Assembly (NCBI GenBank): GCA_964438385.1
Contig: CAYTKI010000011.1
Location: forward strand, 48,739 to 112,738
DNA length: 64,000 nt
Source of the DNA: an uncultured Methanosarcinales archaeon
GTDB lineage: Archaea; Nanobdellota; Nanobdellia; Woesearchaeales; GW2011-AR4
Direction of reading: 5' to 3'
Each line of letters starts with the position of its first letter. The stretch's first letter is position 1. Below are positions 6,925 to 60,602 of this stretch, piece after piece. The position numbers and the translations under genes are program-made. The notes beneath the pieces were generated by a model, which saw only the letters and a program-made list of their open reading frames with translations, was not told the origin of the DNA and did not search any database.

Positions 6925-7062
6925 AGAGATACTTTGCCGTGGGCATTTCTTAAATGTTTCTTTTGGGGGTGAAGGTGTATTGGGTAGTGACATAGGTCAT
7001 TACCCAGCAAAAGAGCCGGGGTGAACGAAAGACTTTTAAGCGTCGGAGGATGCTCCTGCCGC

Positions 7063-8390: not shown

Positions 8391-9806
8391 CTACACAATT
8401 CCTTTGATATCCTCTTTTTTTATTCCGCCTATCAAATAGAGTGCGCCGAAATAGATGAGGGCCGCAATTGGAAGCACGATAAAGAGATTCATGTCCTTTC
8501 CAAGGAAATAGATGAAGGCGCCCATAGCGGCTGACGCAAGGATCGGTTTGGCGCACATCCGCACGATGCCAACGCCATAGTTTTCCTTAAGCGCATAGTA
8601 ATAGAGCAGGCAGAAATTGACAAATGCGGTGATCACAGTCGCTGCCGATGCCCCGATGTAGCTGAACTTCGGGATAAGGAGTGCATTGAGTGCCACATTG
8701 ATGAAAAGGCATATTCCTGTTGTGTAGGCGAAGATGTGCGGCTTCTTGATGGCATTGAGAAACCACCCGACCATGTTGCCAAGGAAGAGAAAAACCGTAG
8801 TCCAGATGAGGATTTGGAGCACAATGATGGACTGCGTGAATCCTTCCTCGTACATAAAGAGAATTATCTTATCCGCAATCAGCGTCGCTCCAACCATCAG
8901 GGGAAAGCTCACAGCAGCCATCGCATACATCCCTTTCTCAAGAACCATCCGAAGAAGCTTCTTTGACATCTTGGCGTGCATCTCGGCCATGATGGGAAAG
9001 AGGACAAAGACAAGTATCCAGGGAATTTTTGATATCACATTGATGAGCTTATACGCCGCGTTGTAGAATCCGCTCGCCTCATAGCCCTTCATGAGGGTGA
9101 GCATGATGGTGTCCACCTGGAAATAGATGATGATAAACACGCTCGAGAGCCAAAACGTCCAGGATGTCTTGAGCATGGTCTTCCACATCGGCACATCAAT
9201 CTTAAGGGAGAAATGGACATCAAGCTTTCTGAGGAGATAAAGGGAGTAAAGCGTTGCAATGGCATTTGATATCACAAGCACAATCATGAAGGGCATAAGC
9301 CCATAGCCCGCAAGGAGCACAGAGATCCCAATCGCAAAGGCGATAGCCCGCTCGGCGATCCGAACAGCGGCCTCGTATTTCATCTGCTGGAATGAGGAGA
9401 AGGTGTTTCGCGCGACGTAGGAATAGTTCTGGAAGAAAAGCGAGATTGCGGCAAGGAAAATAATGAGGTTCACAGTCGGTCCTCGCGCCATGAAGAGAAG
9501 TGAGAGCATCGGGAGCCCCAAGGTGAGAAGGCAGAAGATCAGCTTGAGAGAGGCATACTGCCCAATATACTTATTCGCGTTCGCCCGATCCTTTGAGACG
9601 CTTGTGACATAAAAATAGGAGATCCCAAAATCATAGGCAAAGGTGAAGAATCCTGCGAAAGCAAACGCAAAGGAGTAGATGCCCAGCTGCTCCGCTCCGA
9701 GGTTTCTCGCAAGAAGGACTATCAAGAAATATGAAAGGATGTTGGAAATGACTTCTGCGAACGTCACAAAGCTGATGTTCTTCACGATATGCTTCTTAAG
9801 GGACAT
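8391..9806 (-). CDS. Polysaccharide flippase (Wzx/MOP superfamily)
   Basis: 471 aa, ~12-14 TM helices. Polysacc_synt-like N-terminus (ISNILSYFLIVLLARNLGAEQLGIYSFAFAFAG). Confidence 0.8.
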   Translation of the reverse strand: MSLKKHIVKNISFVTFAEVISNILSYFLIVLLARNLGAEQLGIYSFAFAFAGFFTFAYDFGISYFYVTSVSKDRANANKYIGQYASLKLIFCLLTLGLPMLSLLFMARGPTVNLIIFLAAISLFFQNYSYVARNTFSSFQQMKYEAAVRIAERAIAFAIGISVLLAGYGLMPFMIVLVISNAIATLYSLYLLRKLDVHFSLKIDVPMWKTMLKTSWTFWLSSVFIIIYFQVDTIMLTLMKGYEASGFYNAAYKLINVISKIPWILVFVLFPIMAEMHAKMSKKLLRMVLEKGMYAMAAVSFPLMVGATLIADKIILFMYEEGFTQSIIVLQILIWTTVFLFLGNMVGWFLNAIKKPHIFAYTTGICLFINVALNALLIPKFSYIGASAATVITAFVNFCLLYYYALKENYGVGIVRMCAKPILASAAMGAFIYFLGKDMNLFIVLPIAALIYFGALYLIGGIKKEDIKGIV

Positions 9807-9891
9807 GGACTCAAAAGGGAAATATCTTTATATATAGTTATTGCTTCCATAAGGAGTATTAAAATCAGGAAAAATATTTGGTTTTGGTAAA

Positions 9892-12532: not shown

Positions 12533-13669
12533 TCATTTATTTTTTGAGGGCATATTGCTTTTCAAAATATTATCTCTGAGAATCTCTGCCACAAGCGTAT
12601 GGCCTTCCACGTTCCAATGACCATCAACAATGAAATAGAATGTGTTGTTGATGTTTTTCTGCCTGAACTCATCTAGGGGGTTGATGGCAGCAATGCCTTC
12701 TTTTTTGAGCCAGGGGACAAGCTCATCCTGCACTCTTGTCCTATTGATATCATTTAGCCCATTTTCCGAAGCGAATTTTTGCATCATCCCCTCATCAACC
12801 TGCTCTTTTGCCGGACTTACAAGAACCATAAAGTGGATATTTCTTTCATCAAGATATTTTTTCATGGCATCAAGCAGAAGCAAGGTCTTTTGGAATGCCT
12901 GCTCATACTCTTTGCTTTGCTCATTGGAATAGATTAGCGTATTGAAGTCCGCTTTTGGATCTTTTGTAGAAGGGTTGAGAAGGTGCATCCCAATGAGGAG
13001 GTTACTGATTTTCTTATTATCAATAACCGAGAAATAGAAAAGTGAATAGAGATGGGAATGCCAGCTCACCATATTCCTCACTTTCAGGGAGAAGCCCACA
13101 TCCTTTTTTGGAGTTTGGATAAGGGTGCTATTTTGTACCTCGAAGAGATTATACTTCACGTTCTCCTTAAGATCATTTGGAAAAAAGCTGAGAACGACCA
13201 TATCTGGGTGGAATGCCGCAACAGTATCCCTGAGAAGGAGGTATTCCTGCTCGGTACCATAGGCCGATATCCCAAAATTCATAACTTCGTATTTTCCTCT
13301 ACTATTATTTCCGTTGAGGAGCCGCTCAAGTACTTTGGCAAATGCCTCATTCTCCTCAACCCCAAACCCGAACACAAATGAGTCGCCGAGAACCGCGATT
13401 CTTTTCACGCCTTCTGGCTTCTGCACAGCATACTCCCTATCCCGAAGTCCTTGGGAGCTAATCCTCACATGCGTCTTGAATTCTAGGCGCTGAAGTACAG
13501 TTGAAATTCCCGGCTTGTGCTCAAATATCTTTTCAGAATCAAGCTGAGTGATATTGAGGTTTTGCGGGAAGAAGAGGCGGAGAAAGATTTCTGTAAGGAG
13601 GAATATAACCAGCAGCGCAGCAATTGCGACTGCAGCATTTTTCAAGAAACCCCCCATGCTCCAATTCAT
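12533..13669 (-). CDS. Membrane-anchored SGNH/GDSL hydrolase (paralog 1), inserted between E1beta and E2
   Basis: N-terminal TM helix, then block I RIAVLGDSFVFGFGV and C-terminal DGHWN (catalytic D/H). Confidence 0.7.
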   Translation of the reverse strand: MNWSMGGFLKNAAVAIAALLVIFLLTEIFLRLFFPQNLNITQLDSEKIFEHKPGISTVLQRLEFKTHVRISSQGLRDREYAVQKPEGVKRIAVLGDSFVFGFGVEENEAFAKVLERLLNGNNSRGKYEVMNFGISAYGTEQEYLLLRDTVAAFHPDMVVLSFFPNDLKENVKYNLFEVQNSTLIQTPKKDVGFSLKVRNMVSWHSHLYSLFYFSVIDNKKISNLLIGMHLLNPSTKDPKADFNTLIYSNEQSKEYEQAFQKTLLLLDAMKKYLDERNIHFMVLVSPAKEQVDEGMMQKFASENGLNDINRTRVQDELVPWLKKEGIAAINPLDEFRQKNINNTFYFIVDGHWNVEGHTLVAEILRDNILKSNMPSKNK

Positions 13670-16103: not shown

Positions 16104-17432
16104 TTACTTCTTTCCTTTCTGGGCAATTTCGACAAGCGCGGCATCTACCGCTTGCAAAAATGCCTCTGAAAGAGTCGGGTGGGCATGTACGGTCTTATGG
16201 ATATCTTCCAATGTGAGGTTGTTTCTGATGGCAAGCGTTGGCTCTGCTACAAGTTCCGATGCCCAAGGGCCAATGGCGCAAAAACCCTTGAGATAGTTGC
16301 CATCGTGAAATATTTTAACAAACCCATCTATGTCCCCAAGGGCGCGGGCCTTGCCGTTTGCGGCGAATCGGAAGATGCTTGAGGGAAGGGTTGAATTTCG
16401 CACGCCAACAGAGGAGATTTCAGGTAAGGTGAAAATAGCGGCAGGAATAATTGTTCCGTCAAATTCCTTTCTTTTGCCCATGAGAGTTGAGGCAGCGGCT
16501 TCTGCCTGGGCAGAAGCAAAATGCGCAAGCATGGTCAGCCCGGTGACATCACCGACCGCATAGATATTTTCCACGCTGGTCTGCATCATGCTATTGACGT
16601 GAATTCCCTTCGAATAGTTTACACCAAGTTTGTCTAATTCTTTCTTGTCAAAAGATGGCTGAACGCCGATTGCGACAAGAATCCTATCTCCCTTCACACT
16701 CTTTGCTCCATTTTCATGCAGAAATGAGATTTCATCCTCCTTAATGCCCGTTACTTTTGCTTCGGTGAAAACATTTATGCCCTCTCTTCTCATCAGGCGC
16801 AGGATTTCCTCTGAGATATCGGCATCTTCTGTCGGCAGCAGCCGTTGTGCCATCTCAATGATTATCACCTTAGAGCCAAAGGCGCAGAAGAGGGAGGCGA
16901 ATTCACAGCCGATGTATCCTCCACCGATAATGACAAGTGTTGCGGGCAATTCAGTGACTTCAAGTAGCGTTGTGCTGTTAAGGACAAAAGGATTATCTTC
17001 TGTGTGGGGAAGCGCAATTGGCTTCGCTCCGGTAGCGATGACGATATTCTTTGTCTTGAGCTCTTTTCCATTGACAACAACAGTATGCCTGTCTTTGATT
17101 TTCCCTTCTCCGGAAATGACTTCCACATTGTGCTCATTCATCACCATGCCAATACCGCGCGAAAGCAATCCGGAAACCTCATCCTTGCGCTGCATAAGGG
17201 CGGCAAAATCAATCTGCACTTCGCCAGAAATGCCTGTCCCTTGTGCTTTCTTGAGCTTTTGGAGTAGCGTTGCTGTGGCATGCAGGGTCTTTGTCGGGAT
17301 GCATCCGTAATTGGTGCATGCGCCGCCGAGCTTGTCTTTTTCGATAAGTGCAGCTTTTCCACCAAGATCCGCTACAAGGCGCGCACATTCGTATCCACCT
17401 GGCCCTGAGCCGATGATTATTGCGTCATACAT
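16104..17432 (-). CDS. lpd: Dihydrolipoyl dehydrogenase (E3)
   Basis: YDAIIIGSGPGGY...GGACTNYGCIPTK redox-active disulfide motif. 442 aa. Confidence 0.9.
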   Translation of the reverse strand: MYDAIIIGSGPGGYECARLVADLGGKAALIEKDKLGGACTNYGCIPTKTLHATATLLQKLKKAQGTGISGEVQIDFAALMQRKDEVSGLLSRGIGMVMNEHNVEVISGEGKIKDRHTVVVNGKELKTKNIVIATGAKPIALPHTEDNPFVLNSTTLLEVTELPATLVIIGGGYIGCEFASLFCAFGSKVIIIEMAQRLLPTEDADISEEILRLMRREGINVFTEAKVTGIKEDEISFLHENGAKSVKGDRILVAIGVQPSFDKKELDKLGVNYSKGIHVNSMMQTSVENIYAVGDVTGLTMLAHFASAQAEAAASTLMGKRKEFDGTIIPAAIFTLPEISSVGVRNSTLPSSIFRFAANGKARALGDIDGFVKIFHDGNYLKGFCAIGPWASELVAEPTLAIRNNLTLEDIHKTVHAHPTLSEAFLQAVDAALVEIAQKGKK

Positions 17433-17567
17433 GGAAATCAGATAAAAGGTGGAAGTGGTATTTTAAAGATTTTGTGGTGGAAATGTCCGCATAAGGGAAA
17501 AGTGATGGAGGGTAATTGATGGCAAATAATCGTTATATTTATCTATGGAAAGGGATTTTGGCTTGGA

Positions 17568-19693: not shown

Positions 19694-20851
19694 CTACGTT
19701 CTTTGTGCCCTTTCAAGCTCTTCTTTGGCCTGCACGAAAAGCTGCTGCGCGACAAGGGCATGCCCTTCTGCGTTCAGGTGACCGTCAATGGGCAGAAACA
19801 GCGGAGCGGAAGTATCTTTTTCCCTGAAAGCGGTGTAGACATCCACAAAAGTGATGTTGTTTTTTTTTGCGTAGTCGTATAGTTCGTCATTGGGCCGCGT
19901 CCTGCTCACTTTTCCTTCTCCAATCCGCTTCTTGTACATGGTCCATTCCGCATCGCGTATCTGGAAGCGCACCGGCAGGGCAAGGAGGATAAGCGAAATG
20001 TTGTGTTCAAGTGAGAGGGTGTGGATGGCAGAAAGCACTTTCTTGTTTTTCTCCCAATCCTTGGCGATCCCCAGGTTGTATTCAAGATCAAAGATCCGAT
20101 TTGAGGAGGACACATCAACCCATTGCGAGACGCGGGTCTTGGCAAAGACAAAAAGATGGGAATGGGTGAGTAGGCCCTCATAGAGCGAATTCACTATCCT
20201 GTTCTTGAGCAGGGGTAGTGTGCGCTTAGCGCTGCGCAGCCGGTGCTCTTCATCAACAGAATAGTAGGGTGAGGTAATTTTTTGCAGAAGTCCTTGCTCA
20301 TCACTCTCCCAAACATTGAGGGAAACATCAGTGACATCGTTATAGACAAAAAAACCGATAATGATGACATCTGGCTTGAATTTTTCCAAGGCATAATTCT
20401 TGAGATAGAGATAATAGCTGTCAAGTGAGTACCCATCGCTAAATCCGGTGTTGAACACCTGGTACGCGATTCCCTTGGAGTTGAGTATCCTCTCAAGTGA
20501 TTTAGCATAAGTTTCATTCATCTCAACCCCAAAGCCGTAGGTCATGGAATCACCCATCACAAGGACACGGGTCAAGTTGGAATGGATTGGGCGTTCATAG
20601 TCTCGAATCCCATAGGAATTGATCTCAACAGACACGTTGAAATCCCCATACACCCCGATATGGGTGTCTTTTGCCCCAGGCATGAGTGTCCAGGGAAGAT
20701 ACTCGCTCTTCTGGTAGATCTGAGGGGAGCTGTGCCTCGCAGTAGAGTAGGTTACCTGCGGCAAAAAGAGCCGAAGCGCGATCTCAAGTAGGAGAATCGA
20801 AACGAGGAGCGCTGCTGTGAGCGCAAGGATATTTTTGTGGAAGTTTCTCAT
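19694..20851 (-). CDS. Membrane-anchored SGNH/GDSL hydrolase (paralog 3)
   Basis: TM anchor, RVLVMGDSMTYGFGV, DGHLNAEGH. Confidence 0.7.
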   Translation of the reverse strand: MRNFHKNILALTAALLVSILLLEIALRLFLPQVTYSTARHSSPQIYQKSEYLPWTLMPGAKDTHIGVYGDFNVSVEINSYGIRDYERPIHSNLTRVLVMGDSMTYGFGVEMNETYAKSLERILNSKGIAYQVFNTGFSDGYSLDSYYLYLKNYALEKFKPDVIIIGFFVYNDVTDVSLNVWESDEQGLLQKITSPYYSVDEEHRLRSAKRTLPLLKNRIVNSLYEGLLTHSHLFVFAKTRVSQWVDVSSSNRIFDLEYNLGIAKDWEKNKKVLSAIHTLSLEHNISLILLALPVRFQIRDAEWTMYKKRIGEGKVSRTRPNDELYDYAKKNNITFVDVYTAFREKDTSAPLFLPIDGHLNAEGHALVAQQLFVQAKEELERAQRT

Positions 20852-20918
20852 GGAACTTTGCCCCTCAATGAATAAGGAACGCTGCTGTTGATATTGTGAG
20901 GTAAATTCAATTTCTTCC

Positions 20919-20938
20919 GTTTAAAAAGATTGTTGCGG
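20919..20938. promoter_or_regulatory. Recurrent promoter motif GTTTAAAAAGATTGTTGCGG in a divergent intergenic region
   Basis: 18/19 identical to 24337..24355. Both copies lie 63-86 nt upstream of minus-strand starts (SGNH 20851; MBOAT 24277). The reverse complement reads CAACAATC-TTTTTAAAC, a BRE/TATA-like arrangement. Confidence 0.5.
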
Positions 20939-21003
20939 AGTCCCATAAGAAAATTTAAATAAACCTCTAAATTTGGGAAAATAGATGGAAATTCGATAAA
21001 AAC

Positions 21004-21855
21004 GTGAATGCGATGAACCAAAATCTTGAGCAATTGAAGGATGTGTTATCTGCAGAAGTTGTCAGGATCTACGCGGAAGCCTTCGGAGAGCCCAAGCTGA
21101 AAAAAGCCCTTGCGTTCCTGAAAACCTATAACACGGAGTTCCTCTTGGGCCAAAGCAGGCTGAACCGAAGCAAGAATTATGAGAAAGGCAATGAGAAGGA
21201 TTTGCATGCGCTCTATTACACCGATGCGGAGTTTATGCAGTTCTACAATGACTCCCTCTTCCTCTCCTACGCCCATTGGAAGAACCATAATGCCATGCTA
21301 AGGTACTTCATCAAGATAGTCAGGAAAATCAAGCCGGAAACTGTCCTTGACGTTCCCTGCGGATCAGGTTTCTACACGCGCTACCTGAGAAAATCCTCCC
21401 GCTCATTCCCGCACATAACCTGCGTCGATGCGAGCGAGCATTCGCTGCAGTTCGCAAAAAAAATAAACAGGGATTCGCAAAATGTTTTCTATCTCAGGGA
21501 GGATTTCAGGAATATCGGAGGAAAATACGATTTCATCATCTGTGGAGAGCTCCTCGAGCACCTTGAAAAGCCAAAAGAATTGCTCGCATTCCTCCGCAAG
21601 CGCGTCAAGGAAGATGGAAAGGTCTTTTTGACCACGGCTCTTTTTTGTTATGCCCATGATCATATCTATATGTTCAGGAGCGCAAGGGATGTGAGGAGAT
21701 TGCTGAAAAAATACTTCTTCATAGAGAATGAATTGGTCCTGCCTGTCTTTGACAGCCAGAAGCTGGGGCATAATGTCCCCACAAACTATGCCTGCCTTCT
21801 GAGGCCGATAAAGACGGGCGGCAGGCAGAATAATGGGGAAGATGCTTCCTTCTAG
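21004..21855 (+). CDS. Class I SAM-dependent methyltransferase
   Basis: VLDVPCGSGFYTRYL (motif I), DFIICGELLEHL (motif II/III). GTG start in the track. Confidence 0.7.
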   Translation: MNAMNQNLEQLKDVLSAEVVRIYAEAFGEPKLKKALAFLKTYNTEFLLGQSRLNRSKNYEKGNEKDLHALYYTDAEFMQFYNDSLFLSYAHWKNHNAMLRYFIKIVRKIKPETVLDVPCGSGFYTRYLRKSSRSFPHITCVDASEHSLQFAKKINRDSQNVFYLREDFRNIGGKYDFIICGELLEHLEKPKELLAFLRKRVKEDGKVFLTTALFCYAHDHIYMFRSARDVRRLLKKYFFIENELVLPVFDSQKLGHNVPTNYACLLRPIKTGGRQNNGEDASF

Positions 21856-22829
21856 CCGGATCCTGATGCATTCCTCCGGATAATCGCGATATCTGCCGCG
21901 AGCTGCCTGGAAAATTGGGCGCTGCCCTCATCGTTGAGGTGCACGCTGTCTGCGAATAAGAAATGGTTTGTATAGTTCCAGCGTTGATAGTCCAGAAGAT
22001 AGGTATTGGAGACATTGCCGTAATAATCACCGAGAATCCCGTAAAATCCCTTTGTATCGGGAATATACCCTGAAGCGATTGAGAGATAGGTGTCTGTAAC
22101 GGGAAATTTCACCAGGATGACGGTGATGTTTCTCTTTTGCGCAAGGGCAAGCGTTTTTTGGAAGTAGTGGATCATTCCTGGGTGCAGGATGGACGCGTTC
22201 CTGAAGTGGTATGCTGCGCGCTGCGAGGCGATGCCATCCTTATCTGCGGCCATGCTAAAGCGGTCATGCATCGGCAGGTGGCCAAGCGCCATTTCCCGCG
22301 AACCTCCCTCAAAGAGAGAAGCCACGAGCTTTTCTCCCCCTCCGATTATTGGGAACGCCGATTTGATGTACTCCTTGAAGGGGTATACCTCATCAAAATG
22401 ATACCACAACTCTTCATAATCAATGAACTTGTGCCAATACCACACATCCTGTACTCTCGAAGCCCTATAGGAAGAAAAGGAGTGGAGATTAAGCGGCAGG
22501 ACGATCACCTCAGGCTCAAAGCCGGAGTCGTTAAGAAGAAAGCGGAGCTTATAGTATGTCTGCATGTAGGTTTCCCCCGCCAAGCCGTAGTTAAAGGATC
22601 CTGGGATAAACGCCGGATTCACGTCTGCCTGCGTTGATGAATCCCCGAGGAACAGAATCTTCACATCAGGCTTGCTCTTGGAGAACTGCTCATCTTGGAT
22701 CCAAAGCCCGGTTCTCTTCAGCACGTATTCTGCATACAGGGCATTAAGAAGGAGAAAAAGAACAAGAAAGAGGAGCGCAAAGGCGCCTGCATATCCCAAT
22801 GATTTGTACATTTCCTTTTCCATGGTCAA
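21852..22829 (-). CDS. SGNH-like O-acyltransferase partner protein (DltD/AlgJ-like), paralog 4
   Basis: TM anchor, ILFLGDSS block I, adjacent to and co-oriented with the MBOAT gene (4-nt overlap). Confidence 0.6.
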   Translation of the reverse strand: MTMEKEMYKSLGYAGAFALLFLVLFLLLNALYAEYVLKRTGLWIQDEQFSKSKPDVKILFLGDSSTQADVNPAFIPGSFNYGLAGETYMQTYYKLRFLLNDSGFEPEVIVLPLNLHSFSSYRASRVQDVWYWHKFIDYEELWYHFDEVYPFKEYIKSAFPIIGGGEKLVASLFEGGSREMALGHLPMHDRFSMAADKDGIASQRAAYHFRNASILHPGMIHYFQKTLALAQKRNITVILVKFPVTDTYLSIASGYIPDTKGFYGILGDYYGNVSNTYLLDYQRWNYTNHFLFADSVHLNDEGSAQFSRQLAADIAIIRRNASGSG

Positions 22830-24277
22830 AACTGGAAATAAATGAAGGGTGTTTTTTCAAATACGCCAAAGAGCAAAATGAAGAGTATGGCAAGGGCAGA
22901 GACGCTCCATTTCACCACAAGAGATCCTTTGGAAAGAGAATCCTCATGGAGCATGTCTTTCTCCTCAAGCCATTCCCAGAACAGGAGCAGTGTGATGGTG
23001 CCGAAGGAGATGGCAAGGCCATACCAGCTCAGGCCGATAAATGTTCCCCCGACAGAGAGGCTCCAGCCGCTGAGAAGATGAGTGAATATGTAGTAGGCAT
23101 CTCCCAGGGAGTTCGAGCGGAAGAGGATGTTGGAAAGGGAGAACAAAAGGAAGGTGGCAATCACTTTCAGAAGCTGTGGCATGGTATCCCACTGCTTTCT
23201 TGCAAAATAGTAGAGGAAAATCAGCAATGCCATGCACCATCCATAGATGATAAAATTCCAGCTCGCGCCGTGCCACAGGCCAAGAAGCGGCCAGCCGATG
23301 AACAGGCAGAGTGTAAAGGCGAGTGTGTGGAGTATTTTCGCATCCTGCACGAATTCCCTAGATGTTTCCTTAAGCAAAAGATAGAGCGGGATGAAAACAT
23401 AATCCTGGAACCATTTAGTGAGGGAAATATGCCAGCGGTTCCAAAGCTCAGCGATGGACTGCGCAAAAAATGGTCTTCGGAAATTCTGAACTAGGCTATA
23501 GCCCATAATCCCTGCAGTCCCACGTGCGATGTCAGAATACCCGGAGAAATCGCAGTAGATCTGAATCGTGAAGGCAAAAGCCGCCAGAAGCAGCTCCATG
23601 CCATTGTAAGACGAGGGAGAACTGAAGACAGTGACGGTGAGCAGGGAGAGGCGATCCGCGATAACAACTTTCTTGAAAAAACCAAGGGCGATGAGCTGTA
23701 GGCTGCCAAAAATGCGGGAGTTGTCCCATTTCTTTTCCTCATAGAATTGCGGAAGTAGATGTCCAGCGCGCTCGATTGGCCCCGCGACAAGCTGTGGGAA
23801 GAACGCATGGTAGACTGCGTAAATTCCAAAGTGTCTTTCCGCAGTGATTTTTTTACGGTAGACATCGATATTGTAGCTCACGGCCTGGAAAGTGTAAAAT
23901 GAGATGCCGACAGGCAGGATGAGATTGAGGGCAAGGGGAGAGAACTGGATGCCGATGTGGGAGAAGAGTTCCCTGAGCGATTCGCCAAAGAAATTCGCGT
24001 ACTTGAAGGCAAAGAGCATGCCGAAGTTGCCAAATAGCCCAAACAGAAGCAATGTTTTGCGGGTGCGTGGATTTTCCGACTTCTCCATGAAGAGCGAGCA
24101 GAAGTAGCCAATGAGTGTGGAGAGGAAAAGAAGGATGCCATACTCAAGCTTCACGCTCATGTAGAAGTAATAGCTCGCGATGAGGAGCAGCATCCAGCGG
24201 AAGCGGTGGGGAATAGTGAAATGCAGTAGCACCACAATGGTAAAGAACACTAAAAATTCAAGGGAGTTGAAGAGCAT
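22826..24277 (-). CDS. MBOAT-family membrane O-acyltransferase (AlgI/DltB-like)
   Basis: 483 aa polytopic. FYTFQAVSYNIDVYRKK, QLVAGPIER, and a conserved His region, typical of AlgI/DltB. Confidence 0.85.
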   Translation of the reverse strand: MLFNSLEFLVFFTIVVLLHFTIPHRFRWMLLLIASYYFYMSVKLEYGILLFLSTLIGYFCSLFMEKSENPRTRKTLLLFGLFGNFGMLFAFKYANFFGESLRELFSHIGIQFSPLALNLILPVGISFYTFQAVSYNIDVYRKKITAERHFGIYAVYHAFFPQLVAGPIERAGHLLPQFYEEKKWDNSRIFGSLQLIALGFFKKVVIADRLSLLTVTVFSSPSSYNGMELLLAAFAFTIQIYCDFSGYSDIARGTAGIMGYSLVQNFRRPFFAQSIAELWNRWHISLTKWFQDYVFIPLYLLLKETSREFVQDAKILHTLAFTLCLFIGWPLLGLWHGASWNFIIYGWCMALLIFLYYFARKQWDTMPQLLKVIATFLLFSLSNILFRSNSLGDAYYIFTHLLSGWSLSVGGTFIGLSWYGLAISFGTITLLLFWEWLEEKDMLHEDSLSKGSLVVKWSVSALAILFILLFGVFEKTPFIYFQF

Positions 24278-24336
24278 CGTGGTCGTGATAAGTGTAGTTT
24301 TTTGGTGTTTTCTATACGGAGAGCTCGCCTTCTATT

Positions 24337-24355
24337 GTTTAAAAAGATTGCTGCG
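24337..24355. promoter_or_regulatory. Second copy of the recurrent motif GTTTAAAAAGATTGCTGCG
   Basis: See 20919..20938. A TATAAATA box on the opposite side (24400-24409) lies ~25 nt before the ATG at 24433. Confidence 0.5.
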
Positions 24356-24417
24356 TTTAGTCGCAGGGAAAAAAAGTATGGAAGGTGTGGTTAAGGGAAA
24401 CCTATAAATACTGAAAT

Positions 24418-26061
24418 TTGCGCAAGTTTGGCATGGCTTCCAACTGGCTCGGGCTCCGCAGGGAATACGAAAAGGTGCTGCTCTTTGGCATCTTCGCGGT
24501 GTTTCTCATCCTGCGGCTCTTTTCCCTAACGCCTTATTTTTTCATCCAGGGGGGCGATGATGCAAGGTATCTTGCGCTCGCGCAGAGCTTTCCCTCTCAT
24601 CTTCTGGATAACAACCAATTCTACATCACACACCCGCCTCTCTTCTCCTGGATAGTTGCAGTATTCTCTTTTGTCTTTGAGGATTACATCGCAGGCATCC
24701 TGGTTTCCCTCCTATCTTCAATCGCCTCCTTTTTTCTTATATACGCGATTTTTAAAAAAGTCGCCTCCAGCGTTTATGTCGCGCTCACTGTTGTACTCCT
24801 CTATTCGATTTCCCCTTTCTTTATCAGCATTGCAACCCTAGTCTCCAAGGAGTCGCTTGCCCTGATGCTGTTTTTGCTGACAATCCATTATTTCATCTCA
24901 TTTGTTGAGGAGAGAAGCGCAAAGGCAGGTCTCATCGCGAGCGTCTTTGGCGCATTGCATGCAATGACAACCGATCATACCTTGCTTCTCATCCCAGCGC
25001 TCGTGCTCACTGCGTTCTTTTTTTCAAGAAAAAAAGTGTCATGGGGCGTTTTGATCCCAATTTTCGTTACGGTAGTTTTCTATCTTATCTGGATTGGGAT
25101 TCGGGTGTATGTCTACACCCATTATGAGTATTATCCTGCCGCCATGGACGGAACCCCTGTTTCAACCGAAGGGTGGGGTGTGAGGGAGCTTCTCAGCCCG
25201 CATTATTTTGATGAGAAGTACGTGCCATTTGGCATTGTCTTTGAGCTAACGCATTATCTCTATCCGATTTTCTATATGCTTAACGTCCAGTTTTTTCCCT
25301 GGCCGCATTCTCTCACCTTTCAAACCATCGGTACCCTCTTTTCCCTCAAGCTCCTCCCTCAGCTATTAATCTATGCCGGATTGGTTGGGACGGCAATCAT
25401 CGGCATTGTGGCCATTTTCAATGATGCGGTGAAATCAGGATTTAAGCGGAATGCGCTGCTCTGGATGCTTGTCATGTTCGCAATCTTCTTTGCGCCTGCC
25501 GCGCAGATACTGACCTCGACTAGGTATGTGCAGATTGCAAATATCTTCCTCTATGGGATTATCGGGCTTGGCATCGTCTCTTTCTTCAGGGCAGTCAAGC
25601 AGGAAAAGCGTCTGCGGCTCCACTTTGCTGCGGCGGTTGGGATGTGCCTCATCCTGCTCATCCCCTATGTCATCCACAATCATTACTTTATGCTCACCAA
25701 GGAAAAGATTGTGGAGCTACGGAAGACCGCTCCCTTCATCCAGGGGCTTCCAAAAGATGGCATCATGGCGCAGTTTGGCTACTCTCCTGAGCTCAACTAC
25801 CTCACAACAAAGAGAGTGATGACTCTTCCCGAGAGTGTGGAGGATCTTTCACCCATCGATCTCTTCAATATCAGCTATGTGTTGTATGGCGAGTATTACC
25901 TTGATACGTTTGAGACAGGAAAAATGTTCAACTATGACATCATTGACTACATCAGGAAGCACCCGGAGCGTTTCAAGCTCCTGGCAGTGGTTGAGGAGCG
26001 CTATGAGCCAAGAGAGCGGCCGGATCATATCTATATCTATGAAGTTGTTAGGAAGGACTAA
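24418..26061 (+). CDS. Polytopic GT-C-fold glycosyltransferase (PMT/ArnT-like)
   Basis: 547 aa, ~12 TM helices, acidic DD motif in the first loop (IQGGDDARYLALAQ). A likely ATG start is at 24433; the track uses an upstream TTG. Confidence 0.5.
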   Translation: MRKFGMASNWLGLRREYEKVLLFGIFAVFLILRLFSLTPYFFIQGGDDARYLALAQSFPSHLLDNNQFYITHPPLFSWIVAVFSFVFEDYIAGILVSLLSSIASFFLIYAIFKKVASSVYVALTVVLLYSISPFFISIATLVSKESLALMLFLLTIHYFISFVEERSAKAGLIASVFGALHAMTTDHTLLLIPALVLTAFFFSRKKVSWGVLIPIFVTVVFYLIWIGIRVYVYTHYEYYPAAMDGTPVSTEGWGVRELLSPHYFDEKYVPFGIVFELTHYLYPIFYMLNVQFFPWPHSLTFQTIGTLFSLKLLPQLLIYAGLVGTAIIGIVAIFNDAVKSGFKRNALLWMLVMFAIFFAPAAQILTSTRYVQIANIFLYGIIGLGIVSFFRAVKQEKRLRLHFAAAVGMCLILLIPYVIHNHYFMLTKEKIVELRKTAPFIQGLPKDGIMAQFGYSPELNYLTTKRVMTLPESVEDLSPIDLFNISYVLYGEYYLDTFETGKMFNYDIIDYIRKHPERFKLLAVVEERYEPRERPDHIYIYEVVRKD

Positions 26062-26103: not shown

Positions 26104-26796
26104 CTAATGGTTTTTCTTGTGATTTGCGCTTTTGGTGCACACAAACACAAACTGTATCGCAAAGAGCCGCTTCCAAATCATTGTGGAAAGGTAATTCAGA
26201 TGATGGGCAAAGGAGAGTATTCTTCCTTGGGCGAATAGATGGCTTAGTTTTGGCAAAGGAAGGGGAGTTGCCTGCTCTTTTGTTATGGATAGGCCAGCGC
26301 CCAGCAGCAATTGCCTCATGGTCTTCAGGGTATAGAAATGAAGGTGCGTGCAATCAAACACCCCTCGCTCATCATAATCAAAATTGCCGAAAAGCACTCG
26401 CAGGCGCGCATAGAGATGGCCGACATTGGGAAGCGAGATGATGGCAATGCCATCTTTCTTGAGAAACGACGCAAACTTTTTTAGGGCAGCATGGGGGTTC
26501 TTTAGGTGTTCAAGCACATCGCCGATGATGATGGCATCAAATGATCCTTTTGGATAATTTGGTATTTTTGAATCCAGGTCAGCAACCTTGACATCCTTGT
26601 AATGGGCGTGCGCTCGTTTTGCGGAATCTGGGTCATACTCAATGCCATAGAAAGTATGCATGGGAAGGTTCATGCCGATATAGCCATCGTTGCATCCCAC
26701 ATCAAGCACTTTCATGCCAGCAGGCATTCCCGAAAGGGTGGAGATAATCCTCATGTGGCTGCTATACTTATCCGGCTTGAATTCATAGGATGCCAT
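26104..26796 (-). CDS. Class I SAM-dependent methyltransferase
   Basis: KVLDVGCNDGYIG (motif I), DAIIIGDVLEHL. Confidence 0.75.
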   Translation of the reverse strand: MASYEFKPDKYSSHMRIISTLSGMPAGMKVLDVGCNDGYIGMNLPMHTFYGIEYDPDSAKRAHAHYKDVKVADLDSKIPNYPKGSFDAIIIGDVLEHLKNPHAALKKFASFLKKDGIAIISLPNVGHLYARLRVLFGNFDYDERGVFDCTHLHFYTLKTMRQLLLGAGLSITKEQATPLPLPKLSHLFAQGRILSFAHHLNYLSTMIWKRLFAIQFVFVCTKSANHKKNH

Positions 26797-26888
26797 GGGA
26801 ACTGGGGGGGGGATGGTGTTTTAAATGTTTCTTGCGGTGGGAGAGAAAAAAGAAAGTGGATAATAAAGGGAGATTTTAGAGGTTCCCC

Positions 26889-40000: not shown

Positions 40001-41098
40001 TTATTTGAGCGCATGGCGCAATACCTTGGCTATCCTTTCTGCGGCATTGCCATCCCACAGGGGAGGCATGCTAGCTTTCCGTATGGTTTTCCCATCAAGG
40101 ATGGAGTTAGCGGCGGCAAGGATTTTTGTTTTGTCAGTGCTCACAAGCACATTCGTCCCACATTCAACGGTCGCAGGGCGTTCGGTATTCTCCCGCAGCG
40201 TGATGCAGGGAATGCCAAGGGCTGTGGTCTCTTCCTGGATGCCGCCGGAATCAGTGAGCACAAGCGCGCAATTGTCCATGAGCGAGAGAAAATCCAGATA
40301 TCCAAGCGGCTCGCAAAGTATCACATTATAATTCAAAATTTTCTTTTCAAGTCCGAATTTCCCTATATTCTTCCGAGTGCGCGGGTGGACGGGAAAAACA
40401 ATGGGCATGCGCTTTCCAAGATCTTCCAAAAGAGAGGTGAGGTGGATAAGGGATTTGGCATAGTCCACATTGCCGGGCCTATGTAGGGTAAGCACCACAT
40501 ATTTTTTTTTGGTGAGATGCATTCTCTCCAGCACATCTGATGATGCAGCCTTCTTGCGATGCGCCAAGAGGGAGTCTATCATGACATTGCCGACAAAAAA
40601 TGATTTCTCCTTTGGGATGCGCTCGTTCTCAAGATTGGTAATGGCGCTCTGTTCGGTGGTGAAAAGGTAATCGGAGATGTGATCAATGATGATGCGGTTG
40701 ATCTCTTCTGGCATGCTCCGATCAAAGCTGCGCAGTCCCGCTTCGACATGGCAGAGGGGGATGTTCATTTTTTTCGCGGTGAGCGCTCCGGCAAGCGTTG
40801 AGTTTACGTCCCCAACGACTACAACAAGGTTTGGCTGCTCTTTGAGGAAGATGCTCTCAAGGGCAGTCATCATCTCGGAAAGCTGCTTTACCGTGCTGCC
40901 ATGCTCCACATTAAGGACATAGTCCGGCCTTGGCATCTCAAGATCCGTAAAGAAGAGTTTTGACATGTTGGCGTCAAAATGCTGTCCGGTGTGGATAAGG
41001 ATCTGCCTGATGCCCTTGCTACTTGAGAATGCAGATATGATTGGCGCTATCTTGATGAAATTCGGCCGTGTGCCAACCACGTGGGCAATCTTGATCAT
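40001..41098 (-). CDS. wecB: UDP-N-acetylglucosamine 2-epimerase (non-hydrolysing)
   Basis: KIAHVVGTRPNFIKIAPI...HVEAGLRSFD...PEEINR...DSGGIQEE. Canonical WecB/MnaA blocks. Confidence 0.9.
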   Translation of the reverse strand: MIKIAHVVGTRPNFIKIAPIISAFSSSKGIRQILIHTGQHFDANMSKLFFTDLEMPRPDYVLNVEHGSTVKQLSEMMTALESIFLKEQPNLVVVVGDVNSTLAGALTAKKMNIPLCHVEAGLRSFDRSMPEEINRIIIDHISDYLFTTEQSAITNLENERIPKEKSFFVGNVMIDSLLAHRKKAASSDVLERMHLTKKKYVVLTLHRPGNVDYAKSLIHLTSLLEDLGKRMPIVFPVHPRTRKNIGKFGLEKKILNYNVILCEPLGYLDFLSLMDNCALVLTDSGGIQEETTALGIPCITLRENTERPATVECGTNVLVSTDKTKILAAANSILDGKTIRKASMPPLWDGNAAERIAKVLRHALK

Positions 41099-41178
41099 GC
41101 TCCAATGAAAGAAAAGCTATTTAAATAATTTCCCATGAGAGAGTGATAAGGCCGCTAGATTAGTGGCTCAGAGGAAAT

Positions 41179-48069: not shown

Positions 48070-50151
48070 TTAGCCCTTTGAAACAGCAAGCACGACCATG
48101 CCCTGGTTCTGGAATGCCGGGGTGAATTTTTGGCTGGAGATGAGCTCCTGCACTTTCATGTTTGTTGCGTTCATGCCGAATTTGCGCGCGGCCTGCCCAT
48201 CAATGACAACGTATTCATAGTTGTGCTGCGCAGCCCAATCGTGGATTTCCTGTGCTGATAAATTAAAGCCGTTTTTCTCAAAATCCTTTATCTCAGGGCA
48301 CCATGCGCAGGTATATTTGTCAAAGGCAAGTAGAAGCGCATCATTGGAGAACGAAAAGATCGCGGAATTTGTAGGCAATGCCTGGTGCAGCCACAGGTAG
48401 CCGGATATCTCTTCATTTGACGTCCAGAAACCCCCTGGCCCCCATTGCGCCGTATTGACGGCATATTTCTGGACAAATGATGTCTGGATGATCCCATAGC
48501 CAAGCAGTGCGATAAGAATGCTCGAGCCAACAAGCGCGATAGCGGGGTTTGAGATGCTGCGAATTGATGATCGGGCTAAAGTCAAAAGTGTAAAAATACC
48601 TTCCCCGGCAAGAATCGCGACGGGAATTGCAAGCAGCATCCACGCTCGGAAGGGGGAGAGCCGAAGAGCAAAGGGGGAGGCGTTCACGGCGTAAAAGCTG
48701 AAGGCAAGCCAGCCAAGGGAAAGCAAAAGGTGCGTATCGCCAAAATCCTTGTTCTTCCAGCATGAGAATGCGAGCGTGACGAGGAGGAAAAGCATGATTC
48801 CAAGGAAGAATATCAAAAAGAGCTGGTCAGTGAAGAATTCCATGAAAGGGATGCTTCCCGGCTGAAGTTTTGCAAATGTTCTTTTTTCAGGGTATTTGAC
48901 ATAGGACTTCCACAGGATGAGGATGATAAAAAGGAAGAGTGCGGGAAAAACAAGCAGAATTGGCTTCGCGTGCTGGGTTATTTCCGTTCTGTATTTGAAA
49001 AAAAGAACTGTCAGTGAAAACGTGAGAAGAAGAGTGATTACGAGCCCAAGCCCGGTGGGATTATTGATGAGGTTTTGACTCTGCGCAAAGAGAAAATCTG
49101 AAAGGTAATATTGGCGATCCGCAGTGCCGCTTACTGAAATCGCATCAGAGGCATTGGAGAGCCCAAGTCCTGCGAGCGTGCCGGAAAGTCCGTGGCGGAC
49201 TAGTGCAGGAAGCCACCACAGCAAAAAGGAAAGGAATATTCCTAGTAACGCCGCTGCATATTCATTCCAAAGAAACCTGCGCGCAGCAAGTGTCCTGATG
49301 CCTATCCAGATAATGAGAAAAAATCCAAAGTAGGCGCTGTGGCTCGGGGAGGTGGTGAGCGTCGCAAAAATGAGAACTGCCGCACTTATGCCCCACCACT
49401 TATCTTCCCGCATGCGCTCAAGGCAGTAGAATGAAGTGAAGAAAAGAGGCATGGTGAGCGCAATCGCCCAGATGAAATGGCTCATGAACGCAGGCAGGGC
49501 AAAGAGTGCAAACGCGGAAAAAAATGCTTTCTTCGAGCTTGAGGTGAGCTGGCGCACAAGGAAATAGAAGATGATGATGTAGAGGGATATAATGAGCGCG
49601 TTGAAAAACTTAAGCGTCCAGTAGAGGGAGTCATTGGTCTGGTGTATTACTCCCATCACCATATCATACGCGGGTGGATAAGGGTCCATATAGCGAAGCG
49701 ACGCTCCCTCTGGGCGAAACAGTGACTTCTCCAATGAGACATATTTTGCACCGACCGCATGTCCCCAGGGATCGTCATCTTCAAGGTAGGGATAGGCAAA
49801 CGCGCCCTTGTGGTACATAAAAAAGGTGAGGCTAAAGAGAATAAGCATTCCGATGATGTAAGGATTGATGTTGAAGGAAATTGGAACTGCAAGGAGTTTC
49901 TTTGTTTTCCATAATCTGAATCCGAATGCCATGATGATTCCAGTTAATGTGATGGTAAGGAAAATTCGGTAATCGATTGGAACGTGCAGCAGATTGAGTA
50001 GGTATCCTAGCGAGACAAGTCCCCCCAGGCCGATTCCCAGGCGCATAAGATGCCGCTCAAGAAAGCTCTCAGAGTTCTTTGCGGAAAATGTCAGCAGATA
50101 GCCAAGGCCGTAGCAGAGCGCAAGGAAGACGATGATGCTGAGGGGATACAT
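48070..50151 (-). CDS. Polytopic GT-C-fold glycosyltransferase (PMT/ArnT/AglB-like)
   Basis: 693 aa, >14 TM helices, acidic first-loop motif YPYLEDDDPWGHA. Confidence 0.5.
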   Translation of the reverse strand: MYPLSIIVFLALCYGLGYLLTFSAKNSESFLERHLMRLGIGLGGLVSLGYLLNLLHVPIDYRIFLTITLTGIIMAFGFRLWKTKKLLAVPISFNINPYIIGMLILFSLTFFMYHKGAFAYPYLEDDDPWGHAVGAKYVSLEKSLFRPEGASLRYMDPYPPAYDMVMGVIHQTNDSLYWTLKFFNALIISLYIIIFYFLVRQLTSSSKKAFFSAFALFALPAFMSHFIWAIALTMPLFFTSFYCLERMREDKWWGISAAVLIFATLTTSPSHSAYFGFFLIIWIGIRTLAARRFLWNEYAAALLGIFLSFLLWWLPALVRHGLSGTLAGLGLSNASDAISVSGTADRQYYLSDFLFAQSQNLINNPTGLGLVITLLLTFSLTVLFFKYRTEITQHAKPILLVFPALFLFIILILWKSYVKYPEKRTFAKLQPGSIPFMEFFTDQLFLIFFLGIMLFLLVTLAFSCWKNKDFGDTHLLLSLGWLAFSFYAVNASPFALRLSPFRAWMLLAIPVAILAGEGIFTLLTLARSSIRSISNPAIALVGSSILIALLGYGIIQTSFVQKYAVNTAQWGPGGFWTSNEEISGYLWLHQALPTNSAIFSFSNDALLLAFDKYTCAWCPEIKDFEKNGFNLSAQEIHDWAAQHNYEYVVIDGQAARKFGMNATNMKVQELISSQKFTPAFQNQGMVVLAVSKG

Positions 50152-50207
50152 TTCAAAAAATAAGGAAATTGTGTTTAAGAAGTTTTTGCTTTGTGCCTTG
50201 TTCGGAT

Positions 50208-50930
50208 TTATTTTTTCTTCAGGATGAAAACAAAAGTTGGCGTGAAGGGGGTGAGCAGCTTGAGGAGCGGAAATGGTACTAATTTAATTGCTTTCTGGAG
50301 ATAGGGATAGGCATCGACGCCATAGCGCGAGGGGTATTTCATGAGCCGGGGGGTGATATCAACCATATCAAAATGAGGGCGTGCAATCTTTTTAAGGGAA
50401 AGGTAGGATAGAGAATATATGTCCCAGTTTTCTTTTTTCCTTGCCCATCTGATGTAATGCGCTGCAATTTTTGCCGGGAGCCAGGTGATGAAAGGGAGCT
50501 TGTAGTGCGGATCCATCACCCACCACCGATTCGGAGTCGCAAGATACAGGATCCCTTTTTTTTTAAGCACGCGATGAATTTCGGAGAGATGGGTTTTTTG
50601 GTTTGGGATATGTTCAAGGACATGGTTGGAGAGCGCGATGTCAAAAGTATTATTTTTAAAGGGGAGCTTTTCGCTTGGGATTTTCCTGAATTCATAGCCC
50701 TTTTTTGAGGTGCGCTCATCATACAAATCGACGCTCACCGCCTTCTTAGTATGCCTTGCTATCCTTGCGATAATATGGCCGGAGCCGGTTCCGATGTCTA
50801 GCAGCAGGGAGGTTGTGAGATTCTTGTGCTCGCGAAGGACGCTGAGTATTTTCTGCGCTTTTTTATCCCTGCTCGCCCCATCGAGCCGTGCGTGAGAGGT
50901 ATCTGATTTTATCGCCTTTTGTAGTGCCAT
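50208..50930 (-). CDS. Class I SAM-dependent methyltransferase
   Basis: LLLDIGTGSGHI (motif I), DIALSNHVLEHI. Confidence 0.75.
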   Translation of the reverse strand: MALQKAIKSDTSHARLDGASRDKKAQKILSVLREHKNLTTSLLLDIGTGSGHIIARIARHTKKAVSVDLYDERTSKKGYEFRKIPSEKLPFKNNTFDIALSNHVLEHIPNQKTHLSEIHRVLKKKGILYLATPNRWWVMDPHYKLPFITWLPAKIAAHYIRWARKKENWDIYSLSYLSLKKIARPHFDMVDITPRLMKYPSRYGVDAYPYLQKAIKLVPFPLLKLLTPFTPTFVFILKKK

Positions 50931-51044
50931 TGCACCATTTGCATTGTTGTTATTCTTAAAGATTTGCTGAATTGTGTAAAAATCTTCTTTGGAATATTTT
51001 CTTCTGGTAGAAATATATTTAAACCATCCTCCATTGGTCTCCCT

Positions 51045-52592: not shown

Positions 52593-53702
52593 CTATCGGG
52601 AATACATCTTGCGTGCATTCTCAACCGTCACAAATTTCACACCTGAGAATTGTTTCACAAAAAGTATAAATTTCTCGATATCGGAAAGTACCTGCGTCTT
52701 CTTTCCATCCTGCATCGTGGCTTCGCAGCTGTGCGTGGTCACGACAAAGGGAAATGGCCTCTCTGAGCGATCTGTTTGGTGATAATACTCAAGGAACGCA
52801 TTGCTGAGCAGGGCAGAATATTGCGGGTCCGCTCGCATGATTTTTCCGAAGAAGGAGAAAGTCGCGATTGGAATCTCCAGGGTCTGTTTTTTTCCTTTTT
52901 GGGTTTTAATTGGTGCTTTTTTCCAGTTATTGCCTTCCCTTGTTGATTGGTAGTCGGTAGTGCTTAATAGCCAGGGATAATGTTCCTTCGCCTTACTCCA
53001 GTCATATTTTCTTCCATCATCCAAATGCCCCTTAATCCCAGGAGTTGCGGAGCTGTCAACCAATAGTCCTGCCTCGTTGATCGCTTTTGCGCCTTCGGTA
53101 TTGAGCGCCCAATTCCCCCAGCGGATACTTGTAATTTTTTCACCATTCTTCCCAATAAGGTTCGTATTCTCTTTTCCTAAGTGTGTTCCAATAATTTTCC
53201 TGGAGGTATCGATAAATTCAAGCAATTGCTTTTCATCATGGAAAAAGCAGCTCGTTGCGGGGAATGACTGTCCCAATTCTTTTTGAAGCGCCTTATCGGA
53301 ATCAGGATGGAGATGCAATCCGATCTCATGGCCATCCCTAAGAAGTCCAAAAAGTTCAGCCATAATCCTCTTGTAATCTTCTCCTTGAGCTGAAAAGCAG
53401 TGCGTAGAGAGAAAAAACGTCGCCTCCACCCCATGCCTCTTGAATAGTTCCCGTAGGTTTTTGATGCCAGCGTAGTATCCCAAATAGGCATCCGGCGCTT
53501 CCTTCTGCCACACTCTTCTCTGGTTCACGGCAACATAGCCGGATTCAGTATCGATTGTGAGGGAAATCAAAAAGGGTTTTTTGTTTGGTTTCTTTGGTGA
53601 TTTTTTTATGTAAGGGATGGAGACGCCAAAAGAAAGGCCGCGCGCAATTGCCCCTCCAAGCTTGGTCATGGAAAAGCGATAGGCGAGCAGCTTAAGGCTC
53701 AT
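52593..53702 (-). CDS. Polysaccharide deacetylase-like (divergent CE4/NodB-like) protein
   Basis: LTIDTESG (TFDDG-like), HEIGLHLH (His motif), RWGNW. Divergent, hence modest confidence. Confidence 0.45.
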   Translation of the reverse strand: MSLKLLAYRFSMTKLGGAIARGLSFGVSIPYIKKSPKKPNKKPFLISLTIDTESGYVAVNQRRVWQKEAPDAYLGYYAGIKNLRELFKRHGVEATFFLSTHCFSAQGEDYKRIMAELFGLLRDGHEIGLHLHPDSDKALQKELGQSFPATSCFFHDEKQLLEFIDTSRKIIGTHLGKENTNLIGKNGEKITSIRWGNWALNTEGAKAINEAGLLVDSSATPGIKGHLDDGRKYDWSKAKEHYPWLLSTTDYQSTREGNNWKKAPIKTQKGKKQTLEIPIATFSFFGKIMRADPQYSALLSNAFLEYYHQTDRSERPFPFVVTTHSCEATMQDGKKTQVLSDIEKFILFVKQFSGVKFVTVENARKMYSR

Positions 53703-55399: not shown

Positions 55400-55723
55400 C
55401 TACTCCTTCCCTTCATCCTTCTCAGAGTATGCAGGAACTGCAGCCCGGGAAATTATCATGATATCTCCCATGCTCTTCACAAGCTGGTGCGGGACAATTA
55501 CCCCTTTTGCAGAGCCGAGGACCTTATTGAGAAACGAGCTCTTGGTCGCCCGAACCCTCCAGGCATGGATTTTATTCTTGGTCAAAATAAGCTCCTCAAC
55601 ATCGCCAAAATACTCTCCGTTGTCCGTAAAGACCTTCATGTCATAGCATTCAGAAATGGGTTTCATTTTCAGCATATGTCTCACCTTACTACTTCTTTTA
55701 AATCTACCTATTTTTCTAACCAC
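55400..55723 (-). CDS. PRC-barrel domain protein
   Basis: VFTDNGEYFGDVEELILTKNKIHAWRV fits the PRC-barrel GxxVxdxxGxxiGxVxDl pattern. The start is probably an internal Met. Confidence 0.5.
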   Translation of the reverse strand: MVRKIGRFKRSSKVRHMLKMKPISECYDMKVFTDNGEYFGDVEELILTKNKIHAWRVRATKSSFLNKVLGSAKGVIVPHQLVKSMGDIMIISRAAVPAYSEKDEGKE

Positions 55724-59867: not shown

Positions 59868-60602
59868 ATGCTGACTGGAAAAATTGCATTGGTCACCGGC
59901 TCCTCACGGGGCATTGGAAAGGCAATTGCCCTTGAGCTTGCAAAGAAAGGGGCAGATGTCGCAATTAATTATAGCAGTGATGAGAATGGCGCGCGGGCAG
60001 TTGCCGAGGAAATTGAAAAGATTGGGAGAAAGGCGATTGTGGTCAAGGCGAATGTTTCCAACACAGAGCAGACAAAAAAGATGGTGCAGGAAATATGTGA
60101 GAAACTTGGAAAAATCGACTTGCTGGTCAATAATGCGGGAATCGCACGCGATAAGACCTTAAAGAACATGAGTGTAGAGAAATGGAACTTAGTGATTGAC
60201 ACCAACCTCACTGGCACCTTCAATGTCACCAAGAGCGTGCTTGAAGTTATGCCTGAGGGCGGGAGCATTGTCAACATTTCTTCTGTAGTGGGGCTCAACG
60301 GCAATTTCGGGCAGACAAACTATTCTGCATCCAAGGCAGGCATAATCGGATTCACCAAATCATTGGCAAAAGAGGTGGCGAAGAGAAGGATAAGGGTGAA
60401 CGCAGTCGCTCCTGGATTTATCGAGACAGAGATGACAAAAGGCATCCCGTTCATCAGGAAGCTCATCGTGAAGAGATTCATTCCGCTTGGGCGGTTGGGA
60501 GCAGCAGAGGATGTTGCGCACTTAGTGGCATTTTTACTTTCTGAGGATGCAGGATACATCAGCGGCCAAGTCGTGAGAATAGATGGGGGGTTGATGTTCT
60601 GA
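59868..60602 (+). CDS. fabG: 3-oxoacyl-thioester reductase (FabG-type SDR)
   Basis: KIALVTGSSRGIGKAIA...NNAG...SSVVG...YSASKAG...APGFIETEM. Classical FabG motifs. Confidence 0.85.
   Translation: MLTGKIALVTGSSRGIGKAIALELAKKGADVAINYSSDENGARAVAEEIEKIGRKAIVVKANVSNTEQTKKMVQEICEKLGKIDLLVNNAGIARDKTLKNMSVEKWNLVIDTNLTGTFNVTKSVLEVMPEGGSIVNISSVVGLNGNFGQTNYSASKAGIIGFTKSLAKEVAKRRIRVNAVAPGFIETEMTKGIPFIRKLIVKRFIPLGRLGAAEDVAHLVAFLLSEDAGYISGQVVRIDGGLMF

Follow-up and report, generated by a model that had tools for sequence, protein, structure and literature searches.

Does a pair of nearly identical 19-nucleotide (nt) sequences mark a dedicated regulatory site, or simply two similar promoters? The question is raised by a 64-kb stretch of DNA from an uncultured Woesearchaeota-like archaeon (hereafter the window, meaning the whole stretch analysed), in which two such sequences, separated by 3.4 kb and oriented alike with respect to their genes, lie upstream of minus-strand genes encoding an SGNH/AlgX-like protein and an MBOAT O-acyltransferase. 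A previous sequence-only reading of this DNA had considered the pair too conserved for a generic TATA box, and had favoured a site for a shared regulator or, possibly, a small mobile promoter cassette. From the analysis presented here we conclude, with a probability of about 0.8, that the repeated motif corresponds to the ordinary archaeal core promoters of two neighbouring sugar-acylation units, each comprising a transcription factor B (TFB) recognition element (BRE) followed by a TATA box.

Two near-identical sequences in divergent intergenic regions

Copy 1 (GTTTAAAAAGATTGTTGCGG) spans positions 20919–20938 and copy 2 (GTTTAAAAAGATTGCTGCG) positions 24337–24355, and 18 of 19 positions agree between them, exactly as previously reported. 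Read on the minus strand, both copies give CGCARCAATC-TTTTTAAA-C, in which a TATA box comes after a BRE; the gene-strand motif can also be written CGCARCAATC-TTTTTAAAC. The 19-mer lies 68–87 nt upstream of the ATG at 20851 (SGNH) and 60–78 nt upstream of the ATG at 24277 (MBOAT), close to the 63–86 nt estimated before, and both core promoters are situated 57–65 nt from the ATG, which is their one distinctive point. The divergent intergenic setting was likewise verified, and Pfam supports the gene identities. Downstream of the first copy is a gene for an SGNH/GDSL hydrolase-like protein with an AlgX-type domain (19694..20851, minus strand; PF13472 and PF16822). The second copy precedes an MBOAT (AlgI/DltB-like) O-acyltransferase gene (22826..24277, minus strand; PF03062), from which a DUF1574-like gene (21852..22823, minus strand; weak PF07611 match) reads directly on as a probable operon partner. 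The MBOAT-DUF1574 gene order is also present in the loci L001 and L002.

Alignment of the two intergenic regions revealed that the similarity between copies stops after about 23 nt and that the flanks are unrelated. When the window was searched allowing up to three mismatches, only the two focal sites matched and no third copy was found; at least two matches were obtained in 3 of 100 shuffles. Inside the shared 19 nt there is no dyad or direct-repeat symmetry common to both copies. The non-TATA half (CGCARCAATC), with at most one mismatch, has no other intergenic site in the window, its remaining matches falling only in coding DNA.

Both copies match the core promoter matrix of the window

The upstream regions of all genes were compared on the gene strand, and many genes with an upstream gap displayed an A-rich element followed by a TTTAAA-type box about 20 nt before the ATG. 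An expectation-maximisation motif search on the 34 genes with an upstream gap of at least 40 nt yielded a 22-nt BRE plus TATA motif (consensus CCAGAAAAAAC-TTTTTAAA-CAA; 13.4 bits), whose most informative columns are two A's located 3–4 nt upstream of the box, together with the box itself. Both focal copies carry AA at matrix positions 8–9, the highest-information BRE columns, and their TTTTTAAA box fits the window consensus TWTTTAAA. A held-out 22-nt position weight matrix, built from 21 other upstream sites with the two focal sites excluded, scored the SGNH and MBOAT sites at 16.8 and 16.5 bits, respectively, on the minus strand and below 4 bits on the plus strand. These scores, and the orientation toward the minus-strand genes, support the earlier description of the motif, on the gene strand, as a BRE-like element with a TATA box after it. 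The 16.8-bit SGNH site is the sole minus-orientation match above 6 bits in its intergenic region; upstream of the MBOAT gene, two lower-scoring alternatives exist, one of 11.6 bits that is just 8 nt from the ATG and one of 5.6 bits at a distance of 18 nt.

Across the window, 27 matches reached at least 12 bits, compared with 3.5 in shuffles, and 22 of these 27 sit in non-coding DNA, which makes up 7.2% of the window. Within the window, the motif class is thus strongly intergenic; a similar frequency inside coding DNA, which the earlier note had held would count against its proposal, was not found.

The commonest distance from the motif end to the ATG is 18–20 nt, which places the TATA 3' edge 21–23 nt from the ATG. 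In Methanocaldococcus jannaschii, the TATA 3' edge lies 23 ± 2 nt from the transcription start site (TSS) (PMC2699501), and this comparison indicates that most window genes with their own promoter would be leaderless. Operon-internal or leadered genes (e.g. 52593–53702, 55400–55675 and 58373–59830) carry GGAGGTG/AGGTGA Shine-Dalgarno elements 6–9 nt before the ATG; with promoter-proximal genes leaderless, the genome appears to employ both initiation modes.

We propose that the TATA-binding protein (TBP) would occupy the TTTTTAAA box (20920–20927 and 24338–24345), and TFB the A-rich BRE CGCARCAATC directly upstream on the gene strand, that is, on the higher-coordinate side, which would direct transcription leftward. 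In the SGNH/AlgX-like core promoter (20917..20938, minus strand) the BRE region is CCGCAACAATC (20928–20938) and the box is followed by CGG, while in the core promoter of the MBOAT-DUF1574-like operon (24335..24356, minus strand) the BRE region is ACGCAGCAATC and the box is followed by CAA. The first promoter would drive the SGNH/AlgX-like gene and the second the MBOAT-DUF1574-like operon. Each would stand back to back with a separate core promoter for the divergent plus-strand gene. On the SGNH side, this partner promoter (20943..20964, plus strand; 18.3 bits) precedes a methyltransferase gene (21013–21855, plus strand); on the MBOAT side, it (24392..24413, plus strand; 15.0 bits) precedes a PMT_2 glycosyltransferase gene (24433–26061, plus strand), with 19 nt from the motif end to the ATG, a leaderless distance. 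Both partner sites belong to the training set of the matrix.

The same sequence occupies promoter positions in other archaea

A scan of 596 Gb of genomes for the exact 18-mer GCARCAATCTTTTTAAAC gave 95 occurrences, mostly in unrelated bacteria, a number close to the chance expectation at uniform base composition. Six matches are archaeal, all of them outside the locus of the window, and at least four lie at promoter positions before unrelated genes. In a Nanoarchaeia metagenome-assembled genome (MAG; L067), a class I aminoacyl-tRNA synthetase gene has the 18-mer, within a site reading CCGCAGCAATCTTTTTAAAC, 22 nt ahead of its ATG. An ATG follows the 18-mer at 23 nt in a Methanosarcinales MAG (L071) and at 38 nt in a MAG of Woesearchaeota (L075), and a second Woesearchaeota MAG (L089) has it about 49 nt ahead of a tRNA gene that contains an intron. 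Apart from the synthetase and tRNA genes, the two remaining genes have no Pfam assignment. In L067 and L071 the ATG is 21–23 nt from the TATA edge, and the window matrix also finds sites at leaderless distance (19–22 nt) before long open reading frames (ORFs) in these foreign loci. The L089 tRNA gene (6932–7061), which has an intron of about 60 nt, was missed by ARAGORN and scores 50.3 bits with the Rfam tRNA model.

The nearest MBOAT homologue, the best non-self match in a protein search with only 53% identity, is preceded, at 21 nt from the ATG, by a generic promoter of different sequence, CTCCAAACCTTTAAAAAAA (CTCCAAACC-TTTAAAAA). The focal motif was not found upstream of this homologue, which, such relatives being distant, constitutes a weak test of conservation. 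Named MBOAT homologues are mostly from Woesearchaeota or Nanoarchaeota. The host therefore appears to be a DPANN-type archaeon without a close sequenced relative, and the MBOAT homologues together with the archaeal leaderless promoter architecture of the window point to a host that uses TBP and TFB.

Putative transcription starts and 5' leaders

Transcription starts were predicted by adding 23 ± 2 nt to the TATA 3' edge (PMC2699501), calibrated on the leaderless genes of the window, which gave TSSs at approximately 20896 (SGNH) and 24314 (MBOAT). The predicted SGNH leader of about 45 nt (20852..20896, minus strand) contains, 9 nt before the ATG, the Shine-Dalgarno-like element GAGGGG; the predicted MBOAT leader of about 37 nt (24278..24314, minus strand) has no such element and no structure. 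Such leaders would distinguish both units from the mostly leaderless gene set. No start codon lies further upstream in the SGNH and MBOAT ORFs than the annotated ATGs (20851 for SGNH), and the N-termini of both proteins look genuine (MLFNSLEFLVF for MBOAT and a hydrophobic anchor for SGNH). Neither predicted leader showed a significant fold (z = -1.1 for SGNH and -0.2 for MBOAT), no Rfam family matched within 20600–24700, and no leader homology was detected between the units, the third SGNH paralogue included.

Core promoters, shared operator or mobile cassette

Within the whole 64 kb, six locus pairs share a 19-mer with at most one mismatch, several of them from paralogous genes and two (20355/61990 and 30840/49927) without evident paralogy. 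When only the 4.6 kb of non-coding DNA was considered, such a pair arose in 11 of 1000 dinucleotide shuffles. A promoter-aware null, based on sets of 17–30 promoters from the window matrix, gave a probability of 0.006–0.04 that some pair reaches 18/19, a value that varies with the matrix and the number of promoters and assumes independent positions and a post-hoc 19-nt frame. The focal pair is the highest of 253 promoter pairs, followed by two pairs at 16/19 and three at 15/19. The excess similarity over the promoter null is modest and suggestive at most, and, by extrapolation, pairs this alike are expected by chance when a whole genome with its several hundred promoters is considered. The copies would be nearly identical because both lie close to the lineage promoter consensus (roughly CC..RAAAAnC-TWTTTAAA-C), and very probably they represent two strong generic promoters, without a separate element, whose likeness derives mainly from that closeness. 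The argument that the pair is too conserved for a generic TATA box is not supported: 19–20 nt is the span of a BRE plus a TATA box and the 18-mer serves as a promoter of unrelated genes in other archaea. Several points weigh on the other side. Training of the matrix used this same window, and only the foreign loci and the two focal sites are true hold-outs. Moreover, the pair is more alike than the independent-position null predicts (P of 0.006–0.04), and co-regulation or shared ancestry is possible. Furthermore, we infer the 37–45 nt leaders, of which the MBOAT one lacks a Shine-Dalgarno element, and a weak proximal site at 24296–24317 (5.6 bits, leaderless distance) could give a minor leaderless MBOAT transcript.

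In one alternative, the core promoters would carry an overlapping operator, at which a dedicated transcription factor would read the non-consensus bases common to both copies (CGCARC..T) and regulate the SGNH and MBOAT O-acylation units jointly. The top rank of the pair (18/19, with 16/19 next) and its low probability under the promoter null would fit such an operator, as would the placement of the SGNH and MBOAT genes in one pathway and the unusual distal promoter and leader of both units; however, the operator would have two sites only, CGCARCAATC recurring nowhere else in the intergenic DNA of the window. It would also be devoid of a shared dyad or direct repeat, as CTGCG-N6-CGCAG is present at copy 2 only and is unique in the window. 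With unrelated flanks, a motif not kept at the differently promoted nearest MBOAT homologue, an identical 18-mer before unrelated, including housekeeping, genes in other archaea, and similar pairs expected by chance (by extrapolation) among several hundred genomic promoters, we consider the operator unlikely, and the shared-regulator site proposed earlier finds no support in these results. A more elaborate version, a small O-acylation regulon in which a regulator on CGCARCAATC would overlap the BRE and the 37–45 nt leaders would add post-transcriptional control, seems improbable to us, as does shared regulation of the two units. If it existed, this regulon would tie the expression of SGNH and MBOAT together in a DPANN archaeon; no characterised operator for such a case is known to us, a matter at which no literature search was aimed.

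Near-identical 19-nt stretches 3.4 kb apart, with the same orientation relative to their genes, could also reflect a local duplication or a miniature mobile element, but the identity does not continue past about 23 nt, neither flanks nor leaders are related, and the window contains neither bracketing terminal inverted repeats nor target duplications nor further copies. In addition, the 95 occurrences of the 18-mer in 596 Gb are close to chance and mostly in unrelated bacteria, and the downstream MBOAT and SGNH genes are not paralogues. The mobile promoter cassette suggested by the sequence-only reading is thus largely refuted, and a duplicated or mobile origin is very improbable. We attach even less credence to pure coincidence, that is, to a functionless AT-rich 19-mer pair in two intergenic regions. 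While pairs with at most one mismatch do arise by chance in 64 kb, as at 20355/61990 and 30840/49927, both copies are top-tier by the held-out matrix, correctly oriented and located in regions needing a promoter, and only 11 of 1000 non-coding shuffles gave such a pair.

At its distal end, the MBOAT promoter is overlapped by a perfect palindrome, CTGCG-TTTAGT-CGCAG (24351–24366), which has no equivalent at the SGNH copy and may be a regulator site for the MBOAT-side promoter pair only.

Other promoters and neighbouring genes of the window

Looser versions of the motif had been noted upstream of other minus-strand genes. Three of these sites are indeed good generic promoters, all members of the training set: 26816..26837 (minus strand; 17.3 bits), a leaderless promoter 19 nt from the ATG of a methyltransferase gene (26104–26796); 50171..50192 (minus strand; 17.6 bits), a leaderless promoter 19 nt from the ATG of gene 48070–50151; and 17459..17480 (minus strand; 19.0 bits), 26 nt from the ATG of a pyridine-nucleotide disulphide oxidoreductase gene (16104–17432; PF07992), which is not an O-acylation gene. 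They are more than three mismatches away from the focal motif and located 19–26 nt from the ATG, not 60–80 nt. A fourth proposed site, 50954–50968, reads TCTTAAAGATTTGCT, one base off the string that had been given for it, and scores below 3 bits, and the promoter of the corresponding gene (50208–50930) is ambiguous.

Further features concern promoter geometry. At 26804–26812, slippage would alter the distance from TATA box to start codon, a possible phase-variation switch. Two palindromic TATA boxes, TATTTAAATA (41107–41138) and CTTTATATATAG (9814–9847), score as promoters on both strands and stand between divergent genes, 40001–41098 (minus) and 41179 (plus) for the former and 8391–9806 (minus) and 9892 (plus) for the latter; they look like shared bidirectional TATA boxes with a BRE on each side. 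Downstream of the plus-strand promoter on the SGNH side, a 4-codon mini-ORF (20985–20999; ATG GAA ATT CGA TAA) begins exactly at the predicted TSS (TATA 3' edge at 20961 plus 24 nt), and the methyltransferase ORF can start only at 21004 (GTG) or 21013 (ATG), without a Shine-Dalgarno element. This could represent a leaderless mini-ORF followed by reinitiation, or a coincidence.

The SGNH paralogues in the window are merely 30% identical. The paralogue at 12533–13669 aligns to the protein encoded at 19694–20851 only from its fifth residue, and its true start may be the second ATG (at about 13657, in the region 13640–13669), which would change the spacing from promoter to ATG. Elsewhere, genes 57226–58350 and 60602–61735 have several DNA stretches in common at a constant offset of 3382 nt, with up to 26 nt identical, which indicates fairly recent tandem paralogues.

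For annotation, this analysis is of value in that it supplies, for an uncultured Woesearchaeota-like archaeon, a promoter matrix that can be put to use (BRE A's 3–4 nt before TWTTTAAA, ATG 21–23 nt after it). The matrix helps to fix start codons and operon boundaries, and marks the SGNH and MBOAT units as putative leadered exceptions. No new regulatory mechanism is revealed.

Comparison with characterised archaeal promoters

The core promoter of M. jannaschii consists of a 9-nt BRE and an 8-nt TATA box, to which an extended-BRE preference is added farther upstream (Zhang, Li & Olsen 2009, PMC2699501). In its BRE, the position 3 nt before the box (-34) is highly conserved, and a C/G preference, ACCG, lies further upstream (PMC2699501). 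The promoters of the window resemble it in their 8-nt A/T-rich TATA box, in an A-rich BRE within the 9 nt upstream, and in a polarity defined by the BRE; their invariant A's 3–4 nt before the TATA box recall the conserved -34 position, and a weak upstream C/G preference is present in both (CC/CCG here, ACCG there). The spacing is also alike, with leaderless starts of the window 21–23 nt from the TATA 3' edge against a TSS spacing of 23 ± 2 nt. The focal 19–20 nt show the same footprint: CC/CG, then CARCAATC, then TTTTTAAA. In contrast to M. jannaschii, the TATA consensus of the window is TWTTTAAA instead of TWTATATA, and the CC(G) preference is about 2 nt further from the box. What sets the focal promoters apart within a mostly leaderless gene set is their distal position and predicted leaders of 37–45 nt. 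Archaeal BRE/TATA promoters are also reported to have been mapped in the primary transcriptomes of Thermococcus and Haloferax (PMC4247193, PMC5316973, PMC4983044).

The divergent arrangement has a counterpart in the haloarchaeal gvp promoters PA and PD, at which GvpE activator sites are reported to lie upstream of the BREs (PMC2241852). Both systems present opposed core promoters back to back, here with gaps of about 4 nt (20938/20943) and about 35 nt (24356/24392), which leave room for a shared upstream regulator site. Unlike in the gvp case, no recurring upstream activator sequence was found in the two regions, and the sequence between the BREs is not common to them. In summary, the type of element represented by the two focal promoters is already known; the genome that carries them is new.

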